Position numbers and translations under genes: made by a program. A stretch of 39,644 bases of DNA from a virus (lineage: Duplodnaviria; Heunggongvirae; Uroviricota; Caudoviricetes), in IMG/VR virus record IMGVR_UViG_2718218133_000003. One strand, 5' to 3'. The notes below the pieces were generated by a model. It did no database searches. It saw only the letters and a list, made by a program, of their open reading frames with translations, and was not told the origin of the DNA. Shown piece by piece: positions 15,299 through 35,912 of the stretch (positions are counted from its first letter, which is position 1; every line of letters begins with the position of its first letter).

Positions 15299-15334
15299 TG
15301 GGCTTTTTATGCCTGACGTTAGAAGAGTTTCTAC

Positions 15335-15360: not shown

Positions 15361-15397
15361 TGCGGAATTAATTACGGACCGTTATTATTCTGCTCAC

Positions 15398-16441: not shown

Positions 16442-16470
16442 CCTTTACTATATGACATATGTGAGGAAAA

Positions 16471-16899: not shown

Positions 16900-17049
16900 T
16901 ATTTATTGTTTTGTAATAAACGGTTTCGGCTTAGGTTTGTTCTGACACAACTACGGCACTGAGCTAAATTTAGCGGATAGTCAACTCTGAGCCAGTGGCG
17001 GACGTAACAACTACTATTGCTGAGATTTTAATGGATTGAGGAGCAAGAA

Positions 17050-17445
17050 GTGGGATTAAAGAAAATCGTTATGTTGACTTTTTGGGTCGGTTTTGTTGCG
17101 GGATGCACACCTTTACACCCTTCAGATTGCCACAAAACTACTGCTACAGGTAGTTGCAGTTCAGGACGCTGGGATGATCAGGATGAATGGGGGGCGCAAG
17201 CGCGGGGAATCAGAGCTGCAATTAATGCCAAACTTGATGAGCCGCATAACTGGAAAGGGAAAAAATGCAGGTTGCATATGGAATTCTCTCAGGATGGCAC
17301 GGCGTTAAAAATATCTACCAGTAACGGTGATAAAGCCTATTGCGAAGCGATAAAGTCCGCAGCTCATAAAGCCAAATTTCCGGCCTTCAACAATCCGGAA
17401 GTCTACAGAGATTTTCAGAAATCTGGCTTTGACATGCGAGGTTAG
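17050..17445 (+). CDS. Second lipoprotein with divergent TolA domain III-like C-terminus (paralogue of 16471..16899)
   Basis: GTG start with GAGGAG Shine-Dalgarno; lipobox (VAGC); C-terminus GKKCRLHMEFSQDGTALKIS...PEVYRDFQKSGFD follows the same pattern. Confidence 0.6.
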   Translation: MGLKKIVMLTFWVGFVAGCTPLHPSDCHKTTATGSCSSGRWDDQDEWGAQARGIRAAINAKLDEPHNWKGKKCRLHMEFSQDGTALKISTSNGDKAYCEAIKSAAHKAKFPAFNNPEVYRDFQKSGFDMRG

Positions 17446-17570
17446 CTCTTCAATTACTATATCTCATTCATAGCAAACTGACAGATTTGATGATGTTCTA
17501 TATACGAAACCTGTGATGTCAAGTCTGAGCTAATACAAATAAACATAATATCAGAGAAATACATTTTATT

Positions 17571-17595
17571 AGCTCGCTACGGCGAGCTTTTTATA
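17571..17595 (+). terminator. Intrinsic terminator after the lipoprotein morons
   Basis: Hairpin AGCTCGC-tac-GGCGAGCT followed by TTTTTAT. Confidence 0.55.
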
Positions 17596-17696
17596 TTGCA
17601 TCGTCTCCAGCATATATATCAATTAAGGCTCCGATTGATGTGTCTGGAAGCCTACACATAATAACTATGCCATCCGTTCCGTGCGGAGGTGAGGCT

Positions 17697-17912
17697 ATGA
17701 AATCCATGGACAAAATTTCAACAGGCATTGCCTACGGCACCTCCGCAGGCAGTGCTGGCTACTGGTTTTTACAGCTGCTCGATAAAGTCACGCCCTCACA
17801 GTGGGCAGCAATAGGTGTGCTGGGTAGCCTGGTATTTGGCCTGCTGACGTACCTGACAAACCTTTATTTCAAGATTAAAGAAGACAAGCGTAAGGCTGCA
17901 CGGGGAGAGTAA
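17697..17912 (+). CDS. S: Class II holin (pinholin), phage 21 S-like
   Basis: 71-aa product [24 protein letters not shown]... with dual-start motif (MKSM...MDK); GGAGGTGAGG Shine-Dalgarno. Confidence 0.85.
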
Positions 17913-17916
17913 TTCA

Positions 17917-18231
17917 ATGACTCAAAAATATGAACTGATTGTGAAAGGGATCCGCAATTTTGAGAATAAAGTTACGGTAACTTTAGCGTTACGGGACAAA
18001 GAACGCTTTGACGGTGAAATTTTTGACCTGGACATCTCGCTGGACCGTGTTGAAGGTGCCGCGCTGGAGTTTTATGAGGCAGCAGCCAGAAGGAGCATCA
18101 GACAGGTCTTCCTGGATGTTGCTGCCGGGTTATGTGAAGGGGACGAGCTGTTGCCAGAAACGCGCCCCTGTTCAGAGGCGCGGTATACCATAAAAATTAA
18201 CAGTTCTGATAACTCGATTACGGGTTGTTAG
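17917..18231 (+). CDS. Hypothetical protein inserted between holin and endolysin
   Basis: 104-aa ORF with GGAGAG upstream; no recognised motif. Confidence 0.45.
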   Translation: MTQKYELIVKGIRNFENKVTVTLALRDKERFDGEIFDLDISLDRVEGAALEFYEAAARRSIRQVFLDVAAGLCEGDELLPETRPCSEARYTIKINSSDNSITGC

Positions 18232-18286
18232 CTTTTTGCAGTTGGCTTTCCGGTATCTTTCATTGGTAGCATCCTGATAAATATCC

Positions 18287-18820
18287 ATGAGCGCAAAAAT
18301 CAAATACGCCCTGTCAGCTGCTGTTCTGGCGCTGATTGCTGCAGGCGCGTCTGCTCCTCAGATACTTGACCAGTTTCTGGACGAAAAAGAGGGTAACCAC
18401 ACAACGGCATACCGCGATGGTTCCGGCATCTGGACCATCTGTCGGGGGGCCACGATGGTGGATGGAAAACCCGTTTTTCCCGGTATGAAACTGTCGAAGG
18501 AAAAATGCGACCAGGTCAACGCCATTGAGCGTGATAAGGCGCTGGCATGGGTGGAGAAAAACATCAAAGTGCCATTGAGCGAACCCCAGAAAGCGGGGAT
18601 CGCGTCATTCTGTCCGTACAACATTGGTCCCAGTAAGTGTTTCCCGTCGACGTTTTATAAACGAATTAATGCAGGTGATCGCAGGGGAGCGTGTGAGGCG
18701 ATTCGCTGGTGGATTAAGGACGGTGGCAGAGACTGCCGTATTCGTTCAAACAACTGCTACGGTCAGGTATCCCGTCGTGACCAGGAGAGCGCGCTGGCGT
18801 GCTGGGGTATCGACAGATAA
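18287..18820 (+). CDS. R: SAR endolysin (lysozyme with N-terminal signal-anchor-release domain), phage 21 R-like
   Basis: 177-aa ORF; N-terminal hydrophobic SAR segment YALSAAVLALIAAGA; lysozyme core motifs EGNHTTAYRDGSGIWTICRGAT. Confidence 0.85.
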   Translation: MSAKIKYALSAAVLALIAAGASAPQILDQFLDEKEGNHTTAYRDGSGIWTICRGATMVDGKPVFPGMKLSKEKCDQVNAIERDKALAWVEKNIKVPLSEPQKAGIASFCPYNIGPSKCFPSTFYKRINAGDRRGACEAIRWWIKDGGRDCRIRSNNCYGQVSRRDQESALACWGIDR

Positions 18821-18910
18821 GCAGAATATTTTGCTGAAAAATAAGGCATGGCCACGCGGGCGGATAACATGAAATCCTGCGAACTGGCGAAACGTAAGTG
18901 AATAAAAGTA

Positions 18911-18944
18911 AAAACCCCGTTTGTTGGCACCAAGCGGGGTTTTG
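18911..18944 (+). terminator. Terminator-like hairpin between endolysin and Rz
   Basis: AAAACCCCG-loop-CGGGGTTTT. Confidence 0.45.
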
Positions 18945-19118
18945 TGTTTCCTGACTCCGGAAAAGTCAAAGGAGAAAGTGTGTTTGATTTTAGCAAACTG
19001 ATTCGGGAGATTCGAGTGATGGCTGAAAAATTATCCACCTGGAAGTTCATTCTTATCTGGCTGGTGTTTGTGATTATGGCCTCCGGTTATTTCATCGGTC
19101 AGATACGCTGGTGGTGAA

Positions 19119-19583
19119 ATGAACCGCGTACTGTGCGTGGTCATCATTGCCCTGCTGGCGGCCTGTGGTGCGCTTAGTCTGGGGCTGAATCATTACCGTG
19201 ATAACGCCATTACCTACAAAGCCCAGCGCGACAAAAATGTCAGAGAACTGAAGCTGGCGAACGCGGCAATTACTGACATGCAGATGCGTCAGCGTGATGT
19301 TGCTGCGCTCGATGCAAAATACACGAAGGAGTTAGCTGATGCGAAAGCTGAAAATGATGCTCTGCGTGATGATGTTGCCGCTGGTCGTCGTCGGTTGCAC
19401 ATCAAAGCAGTCTGTCAGTCAGTGCGTGAAGCCACCACCGCCTCCGGCGTGGATAATGCAGCCTCCCCCCGACTGGCAGACACCGCTGAACGGGATTATT
19501 TCACCCTCAGAGCGCGACTGATAATAATGCAAAAACAACTTGAAGGGGCACAGCTATACATTCGAGAGCAATGCCTCAGATAA
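19119..19583 (+). CDS. Rz: Rz i-spanin
   Basis: 154-aa ORF with N-terminal TM segment and coiled-coil-like body; position after endolysin. Confidence 0.85.
19339..19521 (+). CDS. Rz1: Rz1 o-spanin lipoprotein embedded in Rz (+1 frame)
   Basis: 60-aa ORF with lipobox (VVVGC) and proline-rich mature region, entirely within Rz. Confidence 0.8.
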
Positions 19584-19902
19584 AAACCGGCCAAGGATAA
19601 TCCGCTGAAGATTCGCCTGTGGCTAAAGTGTGCCAAGAGTTCAATTTACGCAATTACTCCTGTCGATGCTATGCACCGTCTTTGTGAAGTCAATGGATAC
19701 CTGATTTATTTCTGTGCGCTGTATCGTCGCTGTACTCTTGCATTAATTATGACTGTAGCCTGACGGGGAACTCCTTCTGCGCGAGTGTGGGGGAATAATC
19801 AAAAACGATGTACACCGGGTTATTAACGCGTCAACTTAACGTGGGGTTGCTCTTTATGTCAGCCAGTCCGGTGCTGGGGTAGAAAAAACCGGACGTTATG
19901 GT

Positions 19903-20313
19903 TTAGTGTGGAAATATTTGTGATGTGCTCTGTATGTTTTCAGTAAAGAGTAATGAATTATCAAAGGTATAGTAATATCTTTTTTGTTCGTGGATATTTG
20001 TAACCCACCGAAAAACTCCTGCTTTAGCAAGGTTTCTTCTGTATTCCTGAAATGTGATCTCACTGGATTTCAGCTTATTAGCGGTCGTTTCTATAAGATG
20101 CCTATCCTTTGAAAATTTGACAGACACAATGTTTTTTAGGCCCTTTAATAACACTGTATTATCATTTTTTAATACAATATGAACATTATCTGTAGCTAAA
20201 TAGTAAATGTAATGTGAGACATTGTGACGTTTTAGCTCAGAATAAAACCATTGATAGTTTAAATCGTTTCGAACTTTATCAAATATTTGTTTAAAAATGA
20301 CTACCTGATCCAT
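19903..20313 (-). CDS. AT-rich moron protein, YbcV-like (DUF1398?)
   Basis: ATG at 20313 with GGAAGG Shine-Dalgarno; AT-rich, opposite strand, in the bor/ybcV position after Rz; family assignment from synteny only. Confidence 0.45.
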
Positions 20314-20600
20314 AGATAAACCTTCCATATGGTATGAGGGCACGTAGTTTGCAAGATCGTTTTTATCGTTTCAATCTGGTCTGACCTTTATATGTTTTAT
20401 TGATGATTTATGTCAAAAGTCAGGTGGAAAATACATAGTATTGATTCCGCTATAAAACCTGGTTTTTCTGATATGCCAGGTGGGAAACAAACGACCGATG
20501 TATGCAAGATCAACGCGCAGTGACTTCCACACTTCCACGCTCAAAGATTTGAAGTTATATTTTTAGCGACAAGTGAAGAACAAACGCATGGAGCGACAAA

Positions 20601-20807
20601 ATGCATAAAGATCAATGTACTGAGGCCCCCTCCCAAGAGCAGGTTCGTGTAAAAACTATGCTTAATAGCACCATTTCGATGAGTTACCCGGATGTTATAA
20701 TTGCATGTATAGAACATCAAGTATCTCTGGAAGCATTCAGGGCAATTGAGGCAGCGTTAGTGAAGCACGATAAGAATACGAAGGATTATTCCCTGGTGGT
20801 TGATTGA
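20601..20807 (+). CDS. Small hypothetical protein, YbcW-like (68 aa)
   Basis: 68-aa ORF with GGAG upstream; same length and position as DLP12 ybcW. Confidence 0.4.
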
Positions 20808-21369
20808 TCACCATAACTGCTAACCATTCTGACCATTTCACAAGTGACAGAGTCAATATCGTATTCTGTCACTGTCAGGCTAATACAGTACTGTAATTCA
20901 ACTACAGCAATGCCTCGTATTTAGGTGAATTTACAATATCGTCCAGTTCGGATGCTGGCTGCATTTCTGAAGATAAGGCATTTCGGTTCTCGTATTTTCC
21001 CCTCATGCTCGTCAGTCCTGCGCGTAGTAAGAAACAGGACACTCACACTAATTTGTGTGGGCATGCTGTGATGTCCTTCTGAATTATCCCCATGCCATTA
21101 TGTAAAGCTCTGTTTCAGATGCTCGTCACGGTTGTCAGGCTGTCGGGTCCTACCAGTGAGGGGCCCTGCCACGGGGCGGGAGCGTCGCGGAAAAAGACTA
21201 GTTTTTGCATTTCCATGGCGGCGGCAGCATGTTTGGTAATTTATTGATAATTAAAAGTTATTTCTCTTTTCACCTGTACAATATTTTTTTCTCCCTGTCA
21301 TTAGACCAGTTTGCAATTAATTGAAATATATAAATAAACCTGATTTTCACCTGCCAGATGGAGTTGCTT

Positions 21370-21897
21370 ATGTCAAATGTGAGCGGGATCGGTGATGCTT
21401 ATTACTGGAGTGTTTTTAAAATCGCCGAGGCCTTTGGGCTTCACCGGGACACAGTAAAAAAACGGCTCCTCGCGGCCAACACTCCTGTGGCTGCGACTGT
21501 CAGGGGGAACCCCGTTTACGCCCTGCAGCATGTCGGGCCCGCCCTGTTTAGTGTGAAGCATGAGGCAGCAGACTCTGTTCATGATCCATCCCGTATGGAG
21601 CCGAAAGAGAGAAAGGACTGGTACCAGTCTGAAAATGAAAGGATCAAGCTGGAAAAGGAGCAGCGAAAACTCATCCCAGTTGATGAAGTAGTCATCGTCT
21701 ATTCGTCCATGAGAAAGGCTGTCGTCCAGGTTCTGGAGACAATTCCGGATGTTCTTGAACGCGATTGCGCCCTGACTCCTCAGGCCGTCGGCGTTGTACA
21801 GCAGGCCATTGATGACCTGCGATACACTCTTCAGGAAAAATCCTACGAGGCTTGTGCTGCTGAATTAATTCCTGATGAGGAAGGAGAGAGTCTCTAG
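21370..21897 (+). CDS. Terminase small subunit
   Basis: Immediately upstream of large terminase; HTH-like N-terminus; GGAG Shine-Dalgarno. Confidence 0.6.
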   Translation: MSNVSGIGDAYYWSVFKIAEAFGLHRDTVKKRLLAANTPVAATVRGNPVYALQHVGPALFSVKHEAADSVHDPSRMEPKERKDWYQSENERIKLEKEQRKLIPVDEVVIVYSSMRKAVVQVLETIPDVLERDCALTPQAVGVVQQAIDDLRYTLQEKSYEACAAELIPDEEGESL

Positions 21898-21905
21898 GAG
21901 GAATA

Positions 21906-24005
21906 ATGGGTTTTTCATCAGCCCGAAATTTGGGAAGGGACATATCGGCAGGATTTTCCCCACCACGTCGCATGCCGATTTCGGAGGCTGTTAAAAAATT
22001 CATGCGTGTTCCCAAGGGGGCTGGTAACTCGGTGCCATGGGATCCTGAACTGACACCCTACATCATTGAGCCCATGAACTGCCTGGCATCGCGTGAATAC
22101 GATGCGGTGATTTTTGTTGGTCCTGCGCGAACAGGGAAGACCATTGGTCTGATCGATGGATGGATTGTCTATACCATCGTTTGCGATCCTTCGGACATGC
22201 TCGTTGTGCAGATGACCGAAGATAAGGCCCGCGAGCATTCTAAAAAGCGCCTTGACAGAACGTTCAGAAGCAGTGCGGCGGTAAAGAAAAGAATGAGTCC
22301 ACGTCGTAACGACAATAATGTCCATGATAAGACGTTCAGGGATGGCTCGTTCCTTAAAATTGGTTGGCCCTCGGTCAATATTATGTCGTCGTCGGATTAC
22401 CGGTTTGTCGCCTTAACCGATTACGACCGTTTTCCGGAGAATATCGACAGCGAGGGTGATGGTTTCTCCCTGGCCTCAAAACGTACCACCACATTTATGT
22501 CCGCCGGGATGACTCTGGTGGAGAGCTCGCCGGGACGTGACATCTGCGACAGCAAATGGCGACGTAAGTCGCCTCATGAAGCGCCACCGACGACTGGTAT
22601 TCTTTCCCTTTACAATCGTGGTGACCGCCGCCGCTGGTACTGGCCATGTCCGCACTGCGGTGAATATTTTCAGCCAGCTATGGATGCCATGACCGGCTAC
22701 CGTAATGAACCGGATCCCTTTAAAGCCAGTGAGGCGGCGTATCTACTTTGCCCGCACTGCAGCGGCATTATCACTGCGGAGAAAAAGCGTGAGCTCAATA
22801 GTGCAGGAGTCTGGTTGCGTGAAGGTCAGGTCATTGATCGTAACGGCAACGTTTCCGGTGAACCGCGCCGCTCCCGTATCGCCAGTTTCTGGATGGAAGG
22901 GCCAGCTGCTGCGTATCAGACCTGGGCGCAACTGGTTTACAAATTACTGACTGCAGAACAGGAGTATGAAGCGACAGGAAGCGAAGAAACACTCAGGGCG
23001 GTTATCAACACCGACTGGGGATTGCCTTATCTTCCTCGTGCCAGCATGGAGCAACGAAAAAGTGAACTGCTTGAGCAGCGGGCAGAGCCAGTTCCTTCCC
23101 GCAGTGTTCCGGATGGCGTTAATTTCCTTGTGGCGACAGTGGATGTGCAGGCGGGACGTCATCGCCGTTTTGTGGTTCAGGTAACGGGCTATGGCAGCCG
23201 TGGCGAACGCTGGATTATTGATCGTTACAACATCACGCAGTCATTGCGCAGTGACTGCGACGGGGAGAGCCAGCGAATTGATCCGGCCAGCTATCCGGAA
23301 GACTGGGATGTCCTGCTGACGGATGTTTTTCATAAAAGCTGGCCGCTGGCCTCCGATCCTTCTCAACAAATGCGACTGATGGCAATGGCGGTGGACTCCG
23401 GCGGTGAAGACGGGGTCACTGATAATGCCTATAAATTCTGGCGTCGTTGCCGTCGTGATGGCCTTGGTAAACGTATTTACCTGTTTAAGGGCGACAGCAT
23501 CCGGCGCGCAAAACTGATCAGCCGTACATTCCCTGATAACACCGGACGAACGGGCCGCCGGGCGCAGGCCGCAGGTGATGTGCCGCTCTGGCTTCTTCAG
23601 ACGGATGCCCTGAAAGACCGGGTGAATAACGCGTTATGGCGTGACTCGCCAGGTCCAGGCTATGTGCATTTCCCTGACTGGCTGGGGAGCTGGTTTTACG
23701 ACGAACTGACGTATGAAGAGCGGAGCAGTGACGGGAAATGGAGTAAGCCGGGTCGCGGTGCCAACGAAGCTTTTGACCTGATGGTGTATGCCGAGGCTCT
23801 GGTCATTCTGCATGGATACGAAAAGATCCGCTGGCCGGATGCACCGGAGTGGGCGAGCCGGGAAACCTGGCTGGAGTGTGTCCCGGACAGTACCGAACCG
23901 TCACCCTCACCGGAACCGGTACCCACGCCTGTTAAAAAACAAAAACGGAAGAAAACAGTAACTGACGATGTTAACCCCTGGCTGACTTCCGGAGGATGGT
24001 TATGA
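21906..24005 (+). CDS. Terminase large subunit (lambda gpA family)
   Basis: 699-aa ORF with Walker A-like VIFVGPARTGKT; followed by W-like and portal genes. Confidence 0.85.
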   Translation: MGFSSARNLGRDISAGFSPPRRMPISEAVKKFMRVPKGAGNSVPWDPELTPYIIEPMNCLASREYDAVIFVGPARTGKTIGLIDGWIVYTIVCDPSDMLVVQMTEDKAREHSKKRLDRTFRSSAAVKKRMSPRRNDNNVHDKTFRDGSFLKIGWPSVNIMSSSDYRFVALTDYDRFPENIDSEGDGFSLASKRTTTFMSAGMTLVESSPGRDICDSKWRRKSPHEAPPTTGILSLYNRGDRRRWYWPCPHCGEYFQPAMDAMTGYRNEPDPFKASEAAYLLCPHCSGIITAEKKRELNSAGVWLREGQVIDRNGNVSGEPRRSRIASFWMEGPAAAYQTWAQLVYKLLTAEQEYEATGSEETLRAVINTDWGLPYLPRASMEQRKSELLEQRAEPVPSRSVPDGVNFLVATVDVQAGRHRRFVVQVTGYGSRGERWIIDRYNITQSLRSDCDGESQRIDPASYPEDWDVLLTDVFHKSWPLASDPSQQMRLMAMAVDSGGEDGVTDNAYKFWRRCRRDGLGKRIYLFKGDSIRRAKLISRTFPDNTGRTGRRAQAAGDVPLWLLQTDALKDRVNNALWRDSPGPGYVHFPDWLGSWFYDELTYEERSSDGKWSKPGRGANEAFDLMVYAEALVILHGYEKIRWPDAPEWASRETWLECVPDSTEPSPSPEPVPTPVKKQKRKKTVTDDVNPWLTSGGWL

Positions 24006-24214
24006 ATCAGAATGATATTGAAGCCATGATTCAGCGTTATACGGAAGCTGAAATGGCGGTGCTGGACGGAAAATCCGTCACTTTTAATGGTCAGCAGATG
24101 ACCATGGAAAACTTATCTGAGATCCGGCAGGGGCGGCAGGAGTGGGAGCGCCGCCTTGCGGCTCTGATTACACGACGACGGGGGCATCCCGGGTACCGGC
24201 TGGCGAGGTTCTGA
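24002..24214 (+). CDS. Head-tail joining protein (gpW-like)
   Basis: 70-aa ORF between terminase and portal; ATGA overlap with terminase stop. Confidence 0.6.
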   Translation: MNQNDIEAMIQRYTEAEMAVLDGKSVTFNGQQMTMENLSEIRQGRQEWERRLAALITRRRGHPGYRLARF

Positions 24215-25722
24215 TGGCAATTCTTGATGATGTGATTGGCGTTTTTTCACCAAGATGGAAAGCGGCAAGGCTGCGTTCCCGTGCGGTGATCCAGGCTTAT
24301 GAGGCCGTAAAAACGACGCGGACACATAAAGCCCGACGGGAGAGCCGAACTGCCGACCAGTTAAGCCAGTACGGGGCCGTGTCGTTACGTGAGCAGGCCC
24401 GTTACCTTGATAACAACCACGATCTGGTCATTGGTGTATTTGACAAGCTGGAAGAACGGGTGGTGGGGAAAAACGGGATTATTGTCGAGCCACATCCGGT
24501 ATTACGCAATGGGGCCATTGCCCGTGATCTGGCAGCGGAGATTCGCACCCGATGGAGTGAATGGTCTGTCAGTCCGGAGGTCACCGGGCAGTTTACCCGT
24601 CCGATGCTGGAACGTCTGATGCTGCGTACCTGGCTGCGCGATGGTGAGGTGTTTGCCCAGATGGTTTCCGGGCGCATAAACAGCTTGACGCCTTCTGCCG
24701 GTGTTCATTTCTGGCTGGAGGCGCTCGAGCCGGACTTTATTCCCATGACCAGTGATGAGAGCAACAGGCTGAATCAGGGCGTGTTTGTTGATGACTGGGG
24801 GCGTCCCGAAAAATATCTGGTGTATAAAAGCCGTCCCGTATCCGGGCGGCAGATGGAAACCAAAGAAGTGGATGCAGAGCGAATGCTGCATCTTAAATTT
24901 GTTCGCCGTCTGCACCAGATGCGCGGGACGTCTTTGTTGTCCGGTGTGCTGATCCGCCTCAGTGCTCTGAAAGAGTATGAAGATTCTGAGCTGACTGCAG
25001 CAAGGATCGCCGCTGCTCTGGGGATGTACATCCGGAAAGGCGACGGACAGAGCTATGAAACGGATGGTAATGACAGCAAGGAGAATGAACGCGAGCTTAC
25101 CATTCAGCCAGGCATTATTTACGACGATCTGAAACCCGGCGAAGAAATCGGAATGGTGAAGTCGGATCGCCCCAATCCTAACCTTGAAACTTTTCGTAAT
25201 GGTCAGTTGCGTGCCGTGGCTGCGGGCAGTCGTCTGAGTTTTTCCAGTACAGCGCGCAACTATAACGGCACTTACAGCGCCCAGCGTCAGGAGCTGGTTG
25301 AATCTACTGATGGCTACCTGATCCTGCAGGACTGGTTTATTGGTGCCGTCACCCGCCCGATGTACCGTGCCTGGCTGAAACAGGCTGTGGCATCCGGTGT
25401 TATCAGGCTACCCCGCGATCTGGACCGATCTTCACTGTATACCGCGGTGTATTCCGGACCGGTGATGCCGTGGATTGACCCTGTTAAGGAGGCTGAGGCC
25501 TGGAAAATTCAGATTCGTGGTGGAGCGGCGACAGAATCAGACTGGGTACGTGCAGGTGGTCGTAATCCGGATGATGTCAAACGTCGGCGCAAGGCCGAAA
25601 TTGATGAAAACCGCAAGCTGGATCTGGTATTTGATACCGATCCGGCCAGTGATAAAGGAGGCAGCAGTGCCGCAACGAAACGACAGGAGCCGCAGCACAC
25701 CGACGACCAGTCCGAAGAATAA
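24214..25722 (+). CDS. Portal protein (lambda gpB family)
   Basis: about 500-aa ORF following terminase/W; start MAILDDVIG. Confidence 0.8.
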   Translation: MAILDDVIGVFSPRWKAARLRSRAVIQAYEAVKTTRTHKARRESRTADQLSQYGAVSLREQARYLDNNHDLVIGVFDKLEERVVGKNGIIVEPHPVLRNGAIARDLAAEIRTRWSEWSVSPEVTGQFTRPMLERLMLRTWLRDGEVFAQMVSGRINSLTPSAGVHFWLEALEPDFIPMTSDESNRLNQGVFVDDWGRPEKYLVYKSRPVSGRQMETKEVDAERMLHLKFVRRLHQMRGTSLLSGVLIRLSALKEYEDSELTAARIAAALGMYIRKGDGQSYETDGNDSKENERELTIQPGIIYDDLKPGEEIGMVKSDRPNPNLETFRNGQLRAVAAGSRLSFSSTARNYNGTYSAQRQELVESTDGYLILQDWFIGAVTRPMYRAWLKQAVASGVIRLPRDLDRSSLYTAVYSGPVMPWIDPVKEAEAWKIQIRGGAATESDWVRAGGRNPDDVKRRRKAEIDENRKLDLVFDTDPASDKGGSSAATKRQEPQHTDDQSEE

Positions 25723-25735
25723 TTCCTGGTTCAGG

Positions 25736-26536
25736 ATGCAGGCAGGTCACCAGAGTGACGCGGATATTTATATTTATGACGAGATTGGTTTCTGGGGTGT
25801 TACAGCGAAGCAGTTTATCAGTGATCTGAATGCACTGGGCGATATCACCCACATTAATCTCCATATTAATTCACCGGGTGGCGATGTCTTTGAAGGCATC
25901 GCCATTTTTAATGCACTGAAAACACATGGTGCGTCCATTACCGTTTATGTCGACGGTGTGGCGGCGTCAATGGCGTCGGTCATTGCGATGGTGGGAAACC
26001 CGATCATTATGCCGGAAAACTCCTTCATGATGATTCATAAACCATTTGGCTTTACGGGCGGTGATGCGGAGGACATGCGCACCTATGCCGACCTGCTCGA
26101 TAAAGTTGAGGCGGTTCTGTTACCCGCTTATGCACAGAAAACCGGGAAAACCACCGATGAAATTGCTGCCATGCTGGCGGATGAGACCTGGATGTCCGGT
26201 GCCGAATGTCTGGCACAGGGATTTGCTGATCAGGTGACACCAGCCGTTAAGGCAATGGCATGTATTCAGTCAAAACGTACAGAGGAATTTAAAAAGATGC
26301 CGGAATCCATTCGAAACATGATTACTCCGCCACGCAACAGTGCTCCACGCGTACAGGATGATGAACCTGCAGCCTCCCGGACGCCAGTGCAGGCAGCAGC
26401 ACCCGTGGTGGATGAAAACAGTATCCGTGCGCAGGTACTGGCAGAGCAAAAAGCGCGTGTAAACGGTATTAATGATCTGTTTGCCATGTTTGGCGGCGTT
26501 ATCAGATCACGAAGGATAAATGCAGCAAATGCCTGA
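25736..26536 (+). pseudogene. Head maturation protease (ClpP-like), 3' end truncated and fused across a deletion junction
   Basis: ClpP-type motifs (INSPGGDVFEG, GVAASMASVIAM); the frame runs into sequence that in another frame encodes the gpL C-terminus. Confidence 0.6.
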
Positions 26537-26609
26537 ATGGCTGTAAGTTTCGCAATAACGTCGGCAACTTTGGCGGCTTCCTTTCCATTAACAAACTTTC
26601 GCAGTAAAT
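26520..26609 (+). pseudogene. L: 3' remnant of tail gene L (last ~29 codons)
   Basis: Translates to CSKCLNGCKFRNNVGNFGGFLSINKLSQ*, matching the lambda gpL C-terminus as recalled; no upstream L sequence present. Confidence 0.7.
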
Positions 26610-26612
26610 CCC

Positions 26613-27355
26613 ATGACAGAGACAGAATCAGCGATTCTGGCGCACGCCCGGCGATGTGCGCCAGCGGAGTCGTGCGGCTTCGTGGTGAGAACGCCGGAAG
26701 GGGAAAGATATTTTCCCTGCGTGAATATCTCCGGTGAGCCGGAGGCGTATTTCCGGATGTCGCCGGAGGACTGGCTGCAGGCAGAGATGCAGGGTGAGAT
26801 TGTGGCACTGGTCCACAGTCATCCCGGTGGTCTGCCCTGGCTGAGTGAGGCTGACCGGCGGCTGCAGGTGCAGAGTGATTTGCCGTGGTGGCTGGTCTGC
26901 CGGGGGCGATTCACAAGTTCCGCTGTGTGCCGTATCTCACCGGGCGGCGCTTTGAGCACGGGGTGACGGACTGTTACACGCTGTTCCGGGATGCTTACCA
27001 TCTGGCGGGGATTGAGATGCCGGATTTTCATCGCGAGGATGACTGGTGGCGTCACGGTCAGAATCTCTATCTGGATAATCTGGAGGCCACAGGGCTGTAT
27101 CAGGTGCCGTTGTCAGCGGCGCAGCCGGGCGATGTGCTGCTGTGCTGTTTTGGTTCATCGGTGCCGAATCATGCCGCCATTTACTGTGGTGACGGCGAGC
27201 TGCTGCACCATATTCCTGAACAACTGAGCAAACGAGAGAGGTATACCGACAAATGGCAGCGACGCACACACTCCCTCTGGCGTCACCGGGCATGGCACGC
27301 ATCTGCCTTTACGGGGATTTACAACGATTTGGCCGCCGCATCGACCTTCGTGTGA
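26613..27355 (+). pseudogene. K: Tail assembly protein K (JAMM/MPN + NlpC/P60), split by a single-base frameshift near 26905
   Basis: ORFs 26613..26966 and 26885..27355 together match lambda gpK as recalled (MTETESAILAHARRCAPAESCGF...HSHP... then IHKFRCVP...); frame changes within a CGGGGG run. Confidence 0.7.
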
Positions 27356-27900
27356 AAACGGGGGCTGAAGCCATCCGGGCGCTGGCCACACAGCTTCCGT
27401 CGTTTCGCCAGAAACTGAATGAGGGCTGGTATCAGGTGCGCATTTCCGGGCGTGATGCAGGCGAAAATGAATTATCTGCCCGTCTTAATGAACCGCTGGC
27501 AAATGGTGCCGTGATCCACGTCGTTCCGCGTCTGGCGGGTGCCAAAAGTGGCGGTGTGTTTCAGGCGGTGCTGGGTGCGGCGCTGATTGCGGTGGCATGG
27601 TGGAACCCTGTTGGCTGGCTGGGGGCCGCGGCTGTATCGGGTCTGTATGCAGCAGGGGCCAGTATGATCCTGGGTGGTGTGGCGCAGATGCTGGCACCGA
27701 AAGCCAGGACGCCCACGGCAGCCAGTACAGATAACGGCAAACAGAACACCTATTTCTCGTCACTGGATAACATGGTTGCCCAGGGCAATGTTCTGCCGGT
27801 TCTGTACGGTGAAATGCGCGTGGGGTCACGCGTGGTTTCTCAGGAGATCAGCACGGCAGACGAAGGGGATGGTGGTCAGGTTGTGGTGATTGGTCGCTGA
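27253..27900 (+). CDS. I: Tail assembly protein I
   Basis: 215-aa ORF MAATHTLPLASPGMARICLYGDLQRFGRR..., near identical to lambda gpI as recalled. Confidence 0.85.
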   Translation: MAATHTLPLASPGMARICLYGDLQRFGRRIDLRVKTGAEAIRALATQLPSFRQKLNEGWYQVRISGRDAGENELSARLNEPLANGAVIHVVPRLAGAKSGGVFQAVLGAALIAVAWWNPVGWLGAAAVSGLYAAGASMILGGVAQMLAPKARTPTAASTDNGKQNTYFSSLDNMVAQGNVLPVLYGEMRVGSRVVSQEISTADEGDGGQVVVIGR

Positions 27901-27960
27901 TGCAAAATGTTTTATGTGAAACCGCCTCCGGGCGGTTTTATCGTTTATGGAGCATGACGA

Positions 27961-30900
27961 ATGGGTAAAGGCAGCAGTAAGGGGCATACCCCGCGCGAAG
28001 CGAAGGACAACCTGAAGTCCACGCAGCTGCTGAGTGTGATCGATGCCATCAGCGAAGGGCCGGTTGAAGGTCCGGTGGATAGATTAAAAAGCGTGCTGCT
28101 GAACAGTACGCCGGTGCTGGACAGTGAGGGGAATACCAATATATCCGGCGTCACGGTGGTGTTCCGTGCCGGTGAGCAGGAGCAGACACCGCCGGAGGGG
28201 TTTGAATCCTCCGGCTCCGAGACGGTGCTCGGTACAGAAGTGAAATATGACACTCCGATCACCCGGACCATCACGTCGGCAAACATTGACCGTCTGCGTT
28301 TTACTTTCGGCGTGCAGGCACTGGTGGAAACCACCTCAAAGGGGGACAGGAATCCATCGGAAGTCCGCCTGCTGGTTCAGATACAACGTAACGGTGGCTG
28401 GGTGACGGAAAAAGACATCACCATTAAGGGTAAAACCACTTCACAGTATCTGGCCTCGGTGGTGGTGGATAACCTGCCGCCGCGCCCGTTTAATATCCGG
28501 ATGCGCAGGATGACGCCGGACAGCACCACAGACCAGCTGCAGAACAAAACGCTCTGGTCGTCATACACCGAAATTATCGATGTGAAACAGTGCTACCCGA
28601 ACACGGCACTGGTCGGCGTGCAGGTGGATTCGGAGCAGTTCGGCAGCCAGCAGGTGAGCCGTAATTATCATCTTCGCGGGCGCATTCTGCAGGTGCCGTC
28701 GAACTATAACCCGCAGACGCGGCAATACAGCGGTATCTGGGACGGAACGTTTAAACCGGCATACAGCAACAACATGGCCTGGTGTCTGTGGGATATGCTG
28801 ACCCATCCGCGCTACGGCATGGGGAAACGTCTTGGTGCGGCGGATGTGGATAAATGGGCGCTGTATGTCATCGGCCAGAATTGCGACCAGTCGGTGCCGG
28901 ATGGCTTTGGTGGCACGGAGCCGCGCATCACCTGTAATGCCTGGCTGACCACACAGCGTAAGGCGTGGGATGTTCTCAGTGATTTCTGCTCGGCGATGCG
29001 CTGTATGCCGGTATGGAACGGGCAGACGCTGACGTTCGTGCAGGACCGACCGTCGGATAAGGTGTGGACCTATAACCGCAGTAATGTGGTGATGCCGGAT
29101 GATGGCGCGCCGTTCCGCTACAGCTTCAGCGCCCTGAAAGACCGCCATAATGCCGTTGAGGTGAACTGGATTGACCCGGATAACGGCTGGGAGACGGCAA
29201 CAGAGCTTGTGGAGGACACGCAGGCCATTGCCCGTTACGGTCGTAACGTCACGAAGATGGATGCTTTTGGCTGTACCAGCCGGGGGCAGGCACACCGCGC
29301 CGGGCTGTGGCTGATTAAAACAGAACTGCTGGAAACGCAGACCGTGGACTTCAGCGTGGGTGCCGAAGGGCTTCGCCATGTGCCGGGTGATGTTATTGAA
29401 ATCTGCGATGATGACTATGCGGGGATCAGCATCGGCGGGCGCGTGCTGGCTGTGAACAGCCAGACCCGGACGCTGACGCTCGACCGTGAAATCACGCTGC
29501 CATCCTCCGGTACCACGCTGATAAGCCTTGTTGACGGTCAGGGTAATCCGGTCAGCGTGGAGGTCCAGTCCGTCACCGACGGCGTGAAGGTGAAAGTGAG
29601 CCGTGTTCCTGACGGCGTTGCTGAATACAGCGTGTGGGGGCTGAAGCTGCCGACGCTGCGCCAGCGCCTGTTCCGCTGCGTGAGTATCCGTGAGAACGAC
29701 GACGGCACGTATGCCATCACCGCCGTGCAGCATGTACCGGAAAAAGAGGCCATCGTGGATAACGGGGCGCACTTTGACGGCGACCAGAGCGGCACGGTGA
29801 ATGGTGTCACGCCGCCAGCGGTGCAGCACCTGACCGCCGAAGTCACCGCAGACAGCGGGGAATATCAGGTGCTGGCGCGCTGGGACACGCCGAAGGTGGT
29901 GAAGGGCGTGAGTTTCCTGCTTCGCCTGACCGTGGCAGCGGATGACGGCAGTGAGCTGCTGGTCAGCACGGCCCGGACGGCGGAAACCACATACCGCTTC
30001 AGGCAACTGGCGCTGGGGAACTACAGGCTGACAGTCCGGGCGGTAAATGCGTGGGGGCAGCAGGGCGATCCGGCGTCGGTATCGTTCCGGATTGCCGCAC
30101 CGGCAGCACCGTCGAGGATTAAGCTGACGCCGGGCTATTTTCAGATAACCGCCACGCCGCATCTTGCGGTTTATGATCCGACGGTACAGTTTGAGTTCTG
30201 GTTCTCGGAAAAGCGGATTGCGGATATCAGGCAGGTTGAAACCACAGCCCGCTATCTTGGCACGGCGCTGTACTGGATAGCTGCCAGTATCAATATCAAG
30301 CCGGGCCATGATTATTATTTTTACATCCGCAGTGTGAACACCGTTGGCAAATCGGCATTCGTGGAGGCTGTTGGCCAGCCGAGTGATGATGCATCCGGCT
30401 ATCTGGATTTTTTCAAAGGAGAGATAGGGAAAACCCATCTGGCTCAGGAGTTGTGGACGCAGATTGATAACGGTCAGCTTGCGCCTGACCTGGCGGAAAT
30501 CAGAACGTCCATCACGGATGTCAGTAATGAAATCACGCAGACCGTCAATAAGAAACTGGAAGACCAGAGTGCAGCGATCCAGCAGATACAGAAGGTTCAG
30601 GTTGATACAAATAATAACCTGAACAGCATGTGGGCTGTGAAGCTGCAGCAGATGCAGGACGGACGCCTTTATATCGCGGGTATTGGTGCCGGTATTGAAA
30701 ACACCCCTGACGGCATGCAGAGTCAGGTGCTGCTGGCGGCAGACAGGATTGCGATGATTAATCCTGCGAATGGCAACACAAAGCCGATGTTTGTTGGTCA
30801 GGGCGATCAGATATTTATGAATGAAGTGTTCCTGAAATATCTGACGGCTCCCACCATTACCAGCGGCGGTAATCCTCCGGCATTTTCCCTGACACCGGAC

Positions 30901-31440
30901 GGGCGGCTGACGGCGAAAAATGCCGATATCAGCGGTAACGTGAATGCGAACTCCGGGACGCTCAACAACGTCACGATTAACGAGAACTGCCGGGTTCTGG
31001 GAAAACTGTCCGCGAACCAGATTGAAGGCGATCTCGTTAAAACAGTGGGCAAAGCTTTCCCCCGGGACTCCCGTGCACCGGAACGGTGGCCATCAGGGAC
31101 CATTACCGTCAGGATTTATGACGATCAGCCGTTTGACCGGCAGATTGTTATTCCGGCGGTGGCATTCAGCGGCGCTAAACATGAGAGAGAGCATACTGAT
31201 ATTTACTCCTCATGCCGTCTGATAGTGCGGAAAAACGGTGCTGAAATTTATAACCGTACCGCGCTGGATAATACGCTGATTTACAGTGGCGTTATTGATA
31301 TGCCTGCCGGTCACGGTCACATGACGCTGGAGTTTTCGGTGTCAGCATGGCTGGTAAATGACTGGTATCCCACAGCAAGTATCAGCGATTTGCTGGTTGT
31401 GGTGATGAAGAAAGCCACCGCAGGCATCAGTATCAGCTGA
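27961..31440 (+). CDS. J: Host specificity protein J (central tail fibre)
   Basis: 1159-aa ORF following I; lambda J-like throughout. Confidence 0.9.
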
Positions 31441-31458
31441 ATTTTATAACCCCAATAC

Positions 31459-31484
31459 GGGCGTCAGAAATGACGCCTTTTTTA
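31459..31484 (+). terminator. Intrinsic terminator after J
   Basis: Hairpin GGCGTCA-gaaa-TGACGCC followed by TTTTTT. Confidence 0.6.
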
Positions 31485-31507
31485 TTGCAGAAAAGCGAGA
31501 GGTAATT

Positions 31508-32107
31508 ATGCGTAAATTATGTGCTGTTATTCTGTCCGCAGTAGTCTGGCTGGTTGCCGCTGGTACGCCAGCGAGCGCAGCAGAGCATCAGTCCACACTA
31601 AGCGCCGGGTATCTTCAGACCCATACTGATATGCCAGGCAGTGATGACCTGAAGGGCATTAACGTGAAATACCGTTATGAATTTACGGACACGCTGGGGC
31701 TGGTGACGTCATTCAGTTATGCCAATGCCAAAGATGAGCAAAAAACGCATTACAGCGATACCCGCTGGCATGAAGATTCCGTGCGTAACCGCTGGTTCAG
31801 CATGATGGCGGGGCCATCTGTACGCGTGAATGAATGGTTCAGTGCTTATGCGATGGCGGGTATGGCTTACAGCCGTGTGTCGACCTTCTCCGGGGATTAT
31901 CTCCGCGTAACTGACAACAAGGGGAAAACGCATGATGTGCTGACCGGAAGTGATGACGGTCGCCACAGCAACACGTCTCTGGCGTGGGGGGCTGGCGTGC
32001 AGTTTAACCCGACCGAATCCGTGGCCATTGACCTTGCTTATGAAGGTTCCGGCAGTGGTGACTGGCGCACTGACGGTTTCATCGTGGGTGTCGGTTATAA
32101 ATTCTGA
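31508..32107 (+). CDS. lom: Lom/Ail family outer membrane beta-barrel protein
   Basis: Signal peptide; C-terminus DLAYEGSGSGDWRTDGFIVGVGYKF identical in pattern to lambda Lom. Confidence 0.9.
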   Translation: MRKLCAVILSAVVWLVAAGTPASAAEHQSTLSAGYLQTHTDMPGSDDLKGINVKYRYEFTDTLGLVTSFSYANAKDEQKTHYSDTRWHEDSVRNRWFSMMAGPSVRVNEWFSAYAMAGMAYSRVSTFSGDYLRVTDNKGKTHDVLTGSDDGRHSNTSLAWGAGVQFNPTESVAIDLAYEGSGSGDWRTDGFIVGVGYKF

Positions 32108-32133
32108 TTAGCCAGGTAACACAGTGTTATGAC

Positions 32134-32160
32134 AGCCCGCCGGTTCAGGCGGGCTTTTTT
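32134..32160 (+). terminator. Intrinsic terminator after lom
   Basis: Hairpin AGCCCGCC-ggttca-GGCGGGCT followed by TTTTTT. Confidence 0.65.
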
Positions 32161-32165
32161 GTGGA

Positions 32166-34544
32166 GTGGATATGGCAGCAGTAAAAATCTCAGGTGTGCT
32201 GAAAGATGGTGCGGGAAAACCAATACAGAACTGCACTATTCAACTGAGGGCAAAGCGTAACAGCACCACGGTACTGGTGAACACGGTGGCTTCTGAAAAT
32301 CCGGATGAAGCCGGACGTTACAGCATGGATGTTGAGTATGGCCAGTACAGCGTCACCCTGCTGGTTGAAGGTTTTCCGCCTTCACATGCCGGGACCATTA
32401 CCGTCTATGAAGGCTCCAGACCAGGTACGCTGAATGATTTTCTCGGTGCCATGACGGAAGATGATGTCATGCCGGAGGCATTGCGTCGTTTTGAGGCAAT
32501 GGTGGAAGAAGTGGCACGCAACGCCGAAGCCGCCTCTCAGAGCGCAGCGGCGGCAAAGAAATCCGAAACTGCAGCGGCATCATCAAAGAACGCGGCGAAA
32601 ACCTCAGAAACGAATGCAGCTAATAGTGCACAGGCGGCAGCGGCCTCACAGACTGCATCGGCAAACTCCGCGACAGCAGCCAAAAAATCAGAAACCAACG
32701 CGAAAAATAGCGAGACAGCCGCAAAGACGAGCGAAACCAACGCAAAGTCCAGCCAGACGGCAGCGAAAACCAGCGAAACGAATGCCAAAGCCAGTGAAAC
32801 TGCGGCAAAAAACAGCCAGGTTGCAGCAGCCCAAAGCGAGAGCGCGGCAGCCGGTTCTGCGACTTCAGCAGCCGGATCAGCAACTGCTGCGGCTAACAGC
32901 CAGAAAGCTGCGAAGACGAGTGAAACTAACGCAAAGTCCAGCCAGACGGCAGCGAAGACCAGCGAAACGAATGCCAAAGCCAGCGAAACTGCGGCGAAAA
33001 ACAGCCAGGATGCAGCAGCCGAAAGCGAGAGTGTTGCAGCTGGTTCTGCAAGCGCGGCGGCTGCTTCTGCCACTGCATCAGCTAACAGTCAAAAAGCAGC
33101 AAAAACCAGTGAAACCAACGCAAAGACAAGCGAGACTGCGGCAGCTAACTCGGCGAAAGCATCCGCTGCAAGCCAGACAGCGGCTAAAGCAAGTGAAGAT
33201 GCAGCCAGGGAGTACGCAAGCCAGGCAGCTGAGCCGTATAAACAAGTTTTGCAGCCACTGCCTGATGTGTGGATACCGTTTAATGACTCGATGGATATGA
33301 TTGCAGGATTTGGCCCGGGATATAAAAAAATAACAGTGCGCGATGATGTGGTCACTATACCATCCGACAAAATTGTCCCGTTTTCCCGCGCGAGTTCCGC
33401 GACCTATATCAATAAGTCCGGCGCTCTTACCATTGCAGAAATTAATGAGCCACGTTTTGAAAAAGAAGGGCTGTTAATTGAAGGGCAGAGAACTAACTAT
33501 CTAAAAAATTCTAATACACCGGAATTGTGGTACTACCACAGTTTACTGGCGAAAGAGTATGGGGTTGATAATTACGGTTTTAATTATGCAACCGTCACCG
33601 TGACAGACAGTCTTGTAGGCACAACCAGTAGTTATCAGATTCATAGTGTAACTGGAGAGAACAGGTTTTCTCTGTCCATCGGTGAAACCTGCACTTTTTC
33701 TGCCCGCTTTCGTGGAGTTAATTCACGTTGTCGCGTCCATATATCTCTTGTTATTGGCGAAAATGTTAAAACATCCGTTGATGTATGTCTGGAGCCAGAT
33801 ACAGGTGAGGTTAAGGCGTACGGTAATAAGGCGCTGGTGACATTCAGAACGGAAAAACAGGGGGACTGGTGTTACTTTGAAACAACATATACCGCCGCAG
33901 AGAATATTGACGAAGTGGTATGCGGTTTTTTTATAACCAATCCTGAAGATGGTGGTTTTTCTTCTGATTCGTCATTAACAATGACTACGCCGCAAATTGA
34001 AAAAGGGCCATGCGCTTCATCGTTTATTATTTCCGGAAACACACCAACCACGCGCGCCAGTGATATGGTTATTTTTTCAACCAGAAATAACATAAGTTCT
34101 GTCCCTTTAAGCTGTCTTGTTGAAATACATAAAAATTGGGACTCTACGCCAAATCAGGCCCCACGAATTTTAACCACTATTGGCGTGGCGACTAATGATG
34201 AACAACTGGTATTGGCTTTCAGGACGCCTACAAGTCCGGATGTAGAACCTTTACCTTATGTTCAGTTTGGAGTGAGATCTGCATATCTTAGTCCATCTGT
34301 GAAGGCCGGGCGCAAAATGATTGCTGGTTTTGTCTGTAATAGCTCGACTGAATTTCGTTGCTGTTGTAATGGTTACCTGTCACCTGTTCAGACTTCGTCA
34401 TGGAAGAATACCGGAGCTGCACATGAAATACGTATTGGGGGAACTTCTGCTGGAGGAGAACGTCACTTGTTTGGTCACGTTCGTAACCTGAGAATATGGC
34501 ATAAAGAATTAACTGATGCGCAAATGGGGGAGTCAGTAGAATGA
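32166..34544 (+). CDS. stf: Side tail fibre protein (Stf-like) with internal Ala/Ser/Thr-rich tandem repeats
   Basis: 792-aa ORF after lom; N-terminus lambda Stf-like; repeat block AAKTSETNAKSSQTAAKTSETNAKASETAAKNSQ. Confidence 0.8.
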   Translation: MDMAAVKISGVLKDGAGKPIQNCTIQLRAKRNSTTVLVNTVASENPDEAGRYSMDVEYGQYSVTLLVEGFPPSHAGTITVYEGSRPGTLNDFLGAMTEDDVMPEALRRFEAMVEEVARNAEAASQSAAAAKKSETAAASSKNAAKTSETNAANSAQAAAASQTASANSATAAKKSETNAKNSETAAKTSETNAKSSQTAAKTSETNAKASETAAKNSQVAAAQSESAAAGSATSAAGSATAAANSQKAAKTSETNAKSSQTAAKTSETNAKASETAAKNSQDAAAESESVAAGSASAAAASATASANSQKAAKTSETNAKTSETAAANSAKASAASQTAAKASEDAAREYASQAAEPYKQVLQPLPDVWIPFNDSMDMIAGFGPGYKKITVRDDVVTIPSDKIVPFSRASSATYINKSGALTIAEINEPRFEKEGLLIEGQRTNYLKNSNTPELWYYHSLLAKEYGVDNYGFNYATVTVTDSLVGTTSSYQIHSVTGENRFSLSIGETCTFSARFRGVNSRCRVHISLVIGENVKTSVDVCLEPDTGEVKAYGNKALVTFRTEKQGDWCYFETTYTAAENIDEVVCGFFITNPEDGGFSSDSSLTMTTPQIEKGPCASSFIISGNTPTTRASDMVIFSTRNNISSVPLSCLVEIHKNWDSTPNQAPRILTTIGVATNDEQLVLAFRTPTSPDVEPLPYVQFGVRSAYLSPSVKAGRKMIAGFVCNSSTEFRCCCNGYLSPVQTSSWKNTGAAHEIRIGGTSAGGERHLFGHVRNLRIWHKELTDAQMGESVE
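32700..33130 (+). repeat. Tandem duplication of about 190 bp inside stf
   Basis: 32722..32912 and 32913..33100 are near-identical, with a partial third copy. Confidence 0.7.
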
Positions 34545-34819
34545 AAGATTTTACGCTGAAGTTTCGAGATCGGGAAGGCTATAAAGCATTCTTGAATGAA
34601 ATTAATTGGGAAGATAATGAAGTATTGCAAGATCAACTCCTGATTGATGAAATTGGATTCGCTTTCGATGAAGTCGGCAGAAATGCCGACGACGAACCAA
34701 TTTATCAACGACGCGACGGTTATTTTGTAAATATTAGAATCTTAGATGAAAAGCTGGACGCATCACCATTTACCGGAAATGTAGTGATTCTTGATGCTCC
34801 TCTTCGTGAATGGGCTTGA
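34541..34819 (+). CDS. Hypothetical protein between the two fibre genes
   Basis: 92-aa ORF; ATGA overlap with stf stop. Confidence 0.45.
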   Translation: MKDFTLKFRDREGYKAFLNEINWEDNEVLQDQLLIDEIGFAFDEVGRNADDEPIYQRRDGYFVNIRILDEKLDASPFTGNVVILDAPLREWA

Positions 34820-34829
34820 GGGGTAATAT

Positions 34830-35870
34830 ATGGCGAACTTAACAGTAATTCCTGATGACATCAAAACGCTAAAATCCGACGTTAGCAAATTAAAAAAAGA
34901 TCAAGGAAGCTACGCAACAAAATCATATGTAGACAATAAAACAACATGGAATGGTTATTGCAATGTAATCTATGATCAAAAGACATTGCCGACCACTGGA
35001 ACTATATTTAGCGGTAAGATTCACTTGTCAAATAAGACAGGAGAAACCGAAAACGCTTATGGTGAGATGTACACCAGAAAAAATATTGACGGTACAAAAG
35101 ATACAATGACAAGGATTGTCACACACAATGGAACAAAAGGTATCTTTTGGGATTTTAGCGATCTTTACGGTGGAACATTAATTTTTCCAGGCAGTGATGG
35201 TTACCTTAAGATGGGGAACTGTCTCATGTCGTATGGTGTGCGGGGAAGTAACGCGCTTATTAAGTTTGACTGCACAGACACATTACAAATCAAATATGCT
35301 AATCATGGGTCAACCATGACAATAAACACACAAGGAACCGCTCACGCTGGCGTTACTGCTAGCTTGTGGGGCAACTCTAGCCGTCCGGTTGTATATGAAG
35401 TTGGTGCTGATGGTGGCGCGTATATGTTCTATGCGCAGAAACATACCGATAACACCTATATGTTAAGCGTTAATGGTGCATGTCATGCCACCGCATTTAA
35501 CCAGCATTCCGACCGGGATCTGAAAGACAACATTCAGGTGATCGATAATGCAACCGACCGCATCCGTAAAATGAACGGCTATACATACACTCTTAAAGAA
35601 AATGGCATACCTTACGCTGGTGTTATCGCGCAAGAAGCACTAGAAGCAATCCCAGAAGTTGTAGGCTCTGCAATGAAATATCAGGATGGTGGAAGCGGGT
35701 CGAAAGGTGAAGAAGGTGAACGTTATTACACAGTAGATTATTCTGGTGTTACTGGCTTGCTTGTTCAGGTAGCCAGAGAGTCAGACGACAGAATAACAGC
35801 ACTGGAAGAAGAAAACGCAGAATTAAGACAAAGATTATCTGCAATTGAGGTGGCGCTTGCGTCTAAATAA
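34830..35870 (+). CDS. Tail fibre/tailspike-like protein with C-terminal intramolecular chaperone (peptidase S74-like) domain
   Basis: C-terminus DRDLKDNIQVIDNATDRIRKMNGYTYTLKENGIPYAGVIAQEALEAIPEVV ... coiled coil ALEEENAELRQRL, typical of self-cleaving fibre chaperone domains. Confidence 0.7.
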   Translation: MANLTVIPDDIKTLKSDVSKLKKDQGSYATKSYVDNKTTWNGYCNVIYDQKTLPTTGTIFSGKIHLSNKTGETENAYGEMYTRKNIDGTKDTMTRIVTHNGTKGIFWDFSDLYGGTLIFPGSDGYLKMGNCLMSYGVRGSNALIKFDCTDTLQIKYANHGSTMTINTQGTAHAGVTASLWGNSSRPVVYEVGADGGAYMFYAQKHTDNTYMLSVNGACHATAFNQHSDRDLKDNIQVIDNATDRIRKMNGYTYTLKENGIPYAGVIAQEALEAIPEVVGSAMKYQDGGSGSKGEEGERYYTVDYSGVTGLLVQVARESDDRITALEEENAELRQRLSAIEVALASK

Positions 35871-35876
35871 TATTAA

Positions 35877-35899
35877 GGGGCCGAGCGCCCCGTTTTATT
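35877..35899 (+). terminator. Intrinsic terminator after the fibre genes
   Basis: Hairpin GGGGC-cgag-CGCCCC followed by GTTTTATT. Confidence 0.6.
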
Positions 35900-35912
35900 G
35901 GGTGGGATGAAA

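Follow-up and report, generated by a model that had tools for sequence, protein, structure and literature searches.

How does the reading frame of a phage head protease come to run without interruption into the end of the minor tail gene L, with tail gene K directly behind it? Such an arrangement was found in a 39,644-nt stretch of DNA, which was analysed as a whole and is referred to here as the window. The first-pass annotation of the window had read the locus as an internal deletion that joined the head protease gene to the last ~90 bp of L and removed the scaffold, capsid and most tail genes, leaving a prophage that cannot make virions on its own. We compared the window with intact relatives, defined the junction and the lost genes, and weighed how the arrangement could have arisen.

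A lambdoid prophage at the Qin site

The window contains a lambdoid prophage of the mEp460/cdtI-like group. Its content, which includes dicB, DicF, ydfD, ydfK, pinQ and ynfT together with an interrupted ydfJ, places it at the chromosomal position of the Qin prophage of Escherichia coli K-12. The integrated phage genome is bounded by an integrase (int) ORF (2–1297, minus strand) and by a disrupted host gene, the truncated ydfJ, whose 5′ part is absent (38361–39644); both lie in the same context as in the annotated parent prophage described below. The ends of the window (1 and 39644) are gene boundaries in the parent annotation, namely those at which the integrase CDS and the ydfJ pseudogene end. 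The window thus holds approximately the prophage and one host gene fragment, with no host flank on the int side.

Downstream of int, the gene order is early and regulatory genes, antiterminator, lysis, terminase, adaptor, portal, the protease ORF, K, I, J, Lom and fibres. A retained block of head genes upstream of the protease ORF (21358–25722, plus strand), defined from ORFs, the parent annotation and domain searches, comprises a DUF1441 small-terminase-like gene (21358–21897), the terminase large subunit (21906–24005), a DUF6148 head–tail adaptor (23996–24214) and the portal (24211–25722), all on the plus strand. The retained tail-tip and fibre block (27253–36206, plus strand) is identical to that of the parent and includes I (27253–27900), J (27961–31440), Lom (31508–32107) and side tail fibre genes, again on the plus strand. 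Within the side tail fibre gene at 32166–34544 there is a direct repeat of 242 bp with 83% identity (32706–33136). Rfam models at their gathering thresholds identified the DicF sRNA (4756–4807, minus strand), the sok antitoxin RNA adjoining hokD (11937–12111, plus strand), the STnc100 sRNA (16170–16360, plus strand) and a prophage tRNA-Met with the anticodon CAT (15399–15473, plus strand). The prophage also carries an AbiH-family abortive-infection gene (10621–11541, minus strand; PADLOC AbiH, E = 1.8e-27), which is intact in the window and is split by IS1 in the otherwise identical prophage of CP104665. The 465-aa ORF beside it (9140–10537, minus strand) had no match in PADLOC.

An 8,366-bp segment is missing relative to an intact parent prophage

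Among 5,426 complete E. coli genomes searched by megablast, four (CP104665, CP195401, CP114227 and AP024687) matched window positions 14700–39644 at 100.0% in two pieces. These pieces span 33,313 bp in the four genomes, as against 24,945 bp in the window. The parent locus used for further comparison was the intact Qin-site prophage of E. coli 2021CK-00607 (NZ_CP104665.1, 2459232–2508019). The window is collinear with it and differs by one substitution, two single-base gaps, a gap of 8,366 bp and an IS1 found only in CP104665. The alignment consists of three blocks. Block 1 (window 1–11388) contains the sole substitution, at 10912 in the AbiH gene (C vs A). Block 2 (11380–26507) and block 3 (26506–39644) contain one 1-bp gap each. 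The break between blocks 1 and 2 (11380–11388) corresponds to the IS1 in abiH of CP104665, which is flanked by a 9-bp target duplication and is lacking in the window, and the break between blocks 2 and 3 is the 8,366-bp deletion.

At the junction (26506–26507), the megablast end points and the comparison with the parent place the end of the left arm at 26507 and the start of the right arm at 26506. Both parental arms share the 2 bp AT at this position, and the joint contained neither filler bases nor an IS or IS end. The alignment to an intact relative that the first-pass annotation had proposed therefore mapped the junction to the base and revealed microhomology of 2 bp. The missing DNA corresponds to CP104665 2486516–2494881, with an ambiguity of ±2 bases. 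Comparison with free phages (mEp460, cdtI, Ayreon and others) gave a consistent position, as homology on the left stops at 26505–26506 and homology on the right starts at 26506. The junction does not reflect a chance resemblance: over lengths of 15 kb and 13 kb the arms match the parent at 100%, each interrupted by just a single 1-bp gap. No shared k-mer of at least 9 bases was found within 60 bp of either breakpoint. Taken together, the joint has the form of a microhomology-mediated illegitimate deletion, with microhomology in the range of 1–9 bp and no long repeat, IS or filler.

Some other short motifs lie close to the breakpoints. The 5-mer TATCA is present near both, and joining at this motif was rejected because the product would differ from the one observed. 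The 8-mer CCTGAATG occurs in the parent 25–32 nt to the right of the left breakpoint and 24–31 nt to the right of the right breakpoint; the retained copy is at window 26532–26539, the probability of such a same-register match by chance is ~0.005, and simple slippage at this pair does not account for the observed joint. The first base of the right arm lies exactly where EcoRV would make its blunt cut (GAT|ATC; GATATC in the parent). A restriction-site origin of the junction was rejected, as a search for a corresponding blunt site at the left end found none, and the EcoRV half-site is probably a matter of chance.

Truncation of a protease/capsid fusion gene and of L

The protease ORF (25667–26536, plus strand) was characterized by translation of the window and the parent and by domain searches. 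It extends from a GTG at 25667 to a TGA at 26534–26536 and is unbroken across the junction. The GTG at 25667 is most likely the start codon, as it is preceded by AAAGGAGG and the same start is annotated in the parent. The first 277 codons of the ORF are native; the next 12 (VIRSRRINAANA) are out of frame and lead to a stop, giving 289 codons in all. In intact phages of the mEp460/cdtI type, the protease, scaffold and major capsid protein are encoded by one 675-codon fusion gene (NCBIfam NF045540). The break falls after codon 281 of this gene, and codons 282–675 are deleted. Thus, the junction with L was correctly recognized in the first-pass annotation, but the gene on its left is not a separate protease gene, and the break lies inside the protease/scaffold/capsid fusion.

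Domain searches supported this conclusion. A CLP_protease domain (Pfam PF00574) was found at residues 31–191 in both the window product (E = 1.3e-36) and the parent protein, whereas Phage_capsid_4 was found at residues 377–672 in the parent only, so that the capsid domain is lost from the window product. Against NF045540 the window product scored 343 bits over profile positions 2–254 of 652, below the cut-off of 475, while the parent scored 985 bits; the window product accordingly has neither the C-terminal capsid domain nor a full-length score. With NF045542, the N-terminal ClpP-related head maturation protease domain, it scored 219.5 bits at residues 32–190, above the cut-off of 120, and belongs to that domain family. 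The fusion gene in the window is therefore a truncated remnant of a member of the NF045540 family in which the ClpP domain and some of the linker survive. This family assignment is based on NCBIfam and Pfam; a literature search on protease–MCP fusions yielded nothing useful. An exact-protein look-up of the truncated product with two choices of start retrieved no record.

On the right of the junction, positions 26506–26607 (plus strand) read in the L frame as ITKDKCSKCLNGCKFRNNVGNFGGFLSINKLSQ*, which is identical to the last 33 codons of the 232-aa parent L. Relative to the protease ORF, the L frame is shifted by one base. The remnant has neither a start codon nor the upstream part of the gene, and its length is 102 bp including the stop codon; it is the 3′ end of L, as had been proposed, although slightly longer than the ~90 bp given. 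Parent L scored 330 bits with TIGR01600, and the window holds no full-length L of this type (TIGR01600/PF05100, ~232 aa with its own start). The ATG of K at 26613 follows L directly, as in intact relatives. Translation and alignment to the parent thus agree with the initial reading that the protease ORF runs uninterrupted into sequence encoding the L C-terminus in another frame and that K is next.

Gene content lost with the deletion

According to the parent annotation, the deleted segment contains, in the same order as in mEp460, a DUF2190 decoration gene, two small head–tail genes, a U-like terminator gene, the major tail protein gene, G, T, a 3,066-bp tape measure gene and an M-like gene, followed by the first 199 of the 232 codons of L. 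The Z-, U-, V-, G-, T-, H- and M-like genes all fall inside it. The list of missing genes in the first-pass annotation was therefore right in substance; only lambda-style FI and FII do not apply, as they are not annotated in phages of the mEp460/cdtI type. When the deleted segment was searched against the rest of the window by blastn and tblastx, no match was found, and the capsid and tail genes elsewhere in the window that would have been a sign of misassembly were thus not encountered.

The prophage retains the integrase, excisionase, immunity, replication, Q, lysis, terminase, portal and tail-tip genes. It has no complete gene for the capsid shell, decoration protein, connector, tail-shaft and tube proteins, tape measure, M or L, and K is broken, so that genes essential for the virion have been lost in comparison with a complete relative. 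From this gene content, the prophage should be unable to form particles on its own, in support of the earlier proposal. The element may still be able to excise, replicate and lyse its host. Speculatively, it might also be packaged by a related helper phage, at ~82% of the parental length.

Two single-base frameshifts near the junction

The two 1-bp gaps in the alignment, which had not been noted in the first-pass annotation, are both frameshifts. The first is a deletion at 26495–26496 (plus strand), 10 bp to the left of the junction, where GGG in the parent is GG in the window. When this G is restored, the large deletion alone generates an in-frame protease(1–281)::L(200–232) fusion of 313 aa, of which the L part is the Cys-rich last 33 residues. 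The GG allele was absent from 2,685 copies of the sequence in the 5,426 complete E. coli genomes (best match 99.5%, 208 vs 209 bases).

The second frameshift is in tail gene K (26613–27355, plus strand; JAB and NlpC/P60 domains), 395 bp from the junction, where a G6 run has become G5 (26902–26906). K is split into a JAB-domain ORF (26613–26966) and an NlpC/P60 ORF (26885–27355), and addition of one G to the run restores the 247-aa parent K exactly. As judged from these reading frames, K is inactivated by the −1 frameshift. G5 on the same K allele was absent from 14,613 copies in complete E. coli genomes (best match 99.6%, 241 vs 242 bases). A 574-bp metagenome contig from ENA (ERZ27280464 k141_113206) has G5 rather than G6 and encodes the same 117-aa frameshift product. 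This contig carries a different K allele with many silent differences, has an Illumina adapter at its end and stops short of the junction; it is thus uninformative with regard to the deletion, and it indicates that the G run of K is prone either to repeated mutation or to repeated error.

The junction and the two frameshifts are three private lesions located within 400 bp. If the two indels were placed at random in 39.6 kb, the probability that both would fall within 400 bp of the junction is ~4e-4. On the other hand, ~180 other homopolymer runs (at least 6 bases, or G/C runs of at least 5) are identical to the parent, indicating that the general homopolymer error rate is very low. Three sources are conceivable for the clustered frameshifts: error-prone synthesis in the course of the repair that made the deletion, neutral decay at a later time, or errors in the consensus.

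Occurrence of the junction in other genomes

In a search of 50,697 phage records, the junction was spanned in none of the 269 matching records, and among the 5,426 complete E. coli genomes it was spanned in none of the 4,364 matching records. It was also absent from GTDB representative genomes and from JGI metagenomes, as were both frameshifts. A natural arrangement of this kind in an intact relative, which would have contradicted the interpretation as a deletion, was therefore not seen in the phage or E. coli records. The junction and both frameshifts are private to the source strain, and none of the databases searched contained this particular allele.

Origin of the deletion

We consider it very probable that the locus arose by a recent, spontaneous, microhomology-mediated illegitimate deletion of 8,366 bp in a Qin-site prophage of the mEp460/cdtI-like type. 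In such an event, ends in codon 282 of the fusion gene and codon 199 of L would have been joined at the 2-bp AT with nothing added. The route would be RecA-independent illegitimate recombination, either end-joining at a resected double-strand break (A-EJ type, with LigA) or a template switch during replication. A flush joint with 2-bp microhomology, without a repeat or an IS, is the scar that RecA-independent illegitimate recombination is expected to leave, and the near identity to the parent suggests that the event was recent and took place within a clone. It is from this scar and this identity that we infer the pathway and the timing. Replication slippage or a topoisomerase-mediated event produces the same scar as A-EJ, and because a microhomology of 2 bp is expected by chance in about one in five blunt joins, it does not discriminate between repair pathways.

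Several other origins were considered. Lambdoid prophages have many repeats in common, and IS1 has been active in this lineage, as shown by the copy in abiH of CP104665; the segment might thus have been lost by homologous, RecA-dependent recombination between repeats or by an IS-mediated adjacent deletion. However, there is no direct repeat of at least 9 bp at or near the breakpoints, and the deleted segment had no blastn match to the retained sequence at E ≤ 1e-3, which makes an origin of this kind very unlikely; the IS-mediated version was rejected, as the junction contains no IS or IS end. It is still less credible that the element was never complete and represents a natural functional arrangement, that is, a satellite or PICI-like element or a type of phage that borrows the capsid and tail of a helper. 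In its favour, int, xis, replication genes, terminase and portal are kept, and with ~82% of the parental length the element might conceivably be packaged by a related helper. A satellite would show a recurrent architecture with intact boundary genes, whereas here each of the two genes that meet at the junction is incomplete (L is reduced to 33 codons without a start, and the fusion gene is interrupted after codon 281 of its 675), K is frameshifted as well, the flanks are 100% identical to those of a complete prophage, and neither the 269 phage records nor the 4,364 complete-genome records contain the junction.

An assembly or sequencing artefact, in which an intact or mixed prophage was represented by a chimeric or minority read path with poor consensus around a false join, is in our view improbable, even though a number of observations are in keeping with it. 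The three private lesions cluster within 400 bp of an otherwise near-identical 39.6 kb, as would fit a locally poor consensus such as a mixed population or inadequate polishing might leave. Each of the two small lesions is the loss of one G from a G run, a typical error of some platforms, several copies of the L-K-I-J region are usual in E. coli genomes (median 2–3, up to 14), which makes it harder to polish, and the junction was found nowhere else in E. coli genomes, GTDB representatives or JGI metagenomes. Against this, the arms share only 2 bp, so that a repeat collapse or a de Bruijn misjoin would have no k-mer to use; both arms are collinear and derive from the same prophage at the same chromosomal site; the agreement of the ~180 other homopolymer runs with the parent argues for a very low general error rate; and GGG to GG is an atypical homopolymer error. 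The same clustering allows a further, tentative reading, which we regard as unlikely, namely that the deletion and both G-run frameshifts go back to a single double-strand break in the prophage late region that was repaired by end-joining with error-prone synthesis of the Pol IV/DinB type. Pol IV/DinB synthesis typically generates −1 deletions in G runs close to breaks. If this were true, the locus would be a natural case, from a clinical lineage, of mutation clustering associated with a break, and as a side effect one of the frameshifts would have abolished an otherwise in-frame ClpP-protease::gpL fusion protein with a Cys-rich tail.

Relation to intact and cryptic prophages

With the spontaneous deletion as the preferred origin, the locus is a case of ordinary, strain-private prophage decay, and the type of event is well known. 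Because a near-identical intact parent is available, it provides a clean, one-step example of a functional prophage turning cryptic, with a scar resolved to the base. For annotation, the prophage is to be described as defective, and the 289-codon "protease" and the two K fragments as pseudogenes; the element should be left out of any tally of inducible, transmissible phages. The one feature that is mildly unusual, the proximity of three private lesions in less than 400 bp, equally calls for caution about the reads beneath the junction.

The closest known system is the intact Qin-site prophage of CP104665, CP195401, CP114227 and AP024687, which has the same site, gene order and junction-flanking sequence as the window. 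Unlike the window, the parent prophage contains the 8,366 bp, has GGG rather than GG beside the junction and G6 rather than G5 in K, and in CP104665 carries the IS1 in abiH. The free lambdoid siphoviruses mEp460, mEp460_ev081, cdtI, Ayreon and phi458 also possess the ClpP-protease/MCP fusion head gene. These phages are 98–99% identical to the window in the portal–protease region and 97–98% identical in the L-K-I region, with the same order of structural genes, but in all of them the head and tail block that separates the two arms is complete, and the interval is ~8.37 kb longer.

With respect to mechanism, end-joining by LigA in E. coli yields deletions of up to 40 kb at microhomologies, according to the account of Chayot et al. 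2010 given in PMC4872102. The A-EJ deletions cited there resemble the one in the window in being of kilobase scale, with very short microhomology and no insert. Whereas A-EJ has been defined by its genetics (dependence on LigA and RecBCD, RecA independence), the event described here is known solely from the scar that it left in the DNA.

The cryptic lambdoid prophages of K-12 (Qin, Rac, DLP12 and e14; for background on cryptic prophages, see PMC6832061 and PMC10448788) are like the window element in that morphogenesis genes have been deleted and regulatory, lysis and accessory genes have been kept, and Qin occupies the same chromosomal site. However, the K-12 elements are old and heavily eroded, whereas the prophage in the window is a one-step derivative that retains ~82% of the full length and carries only three lesions.
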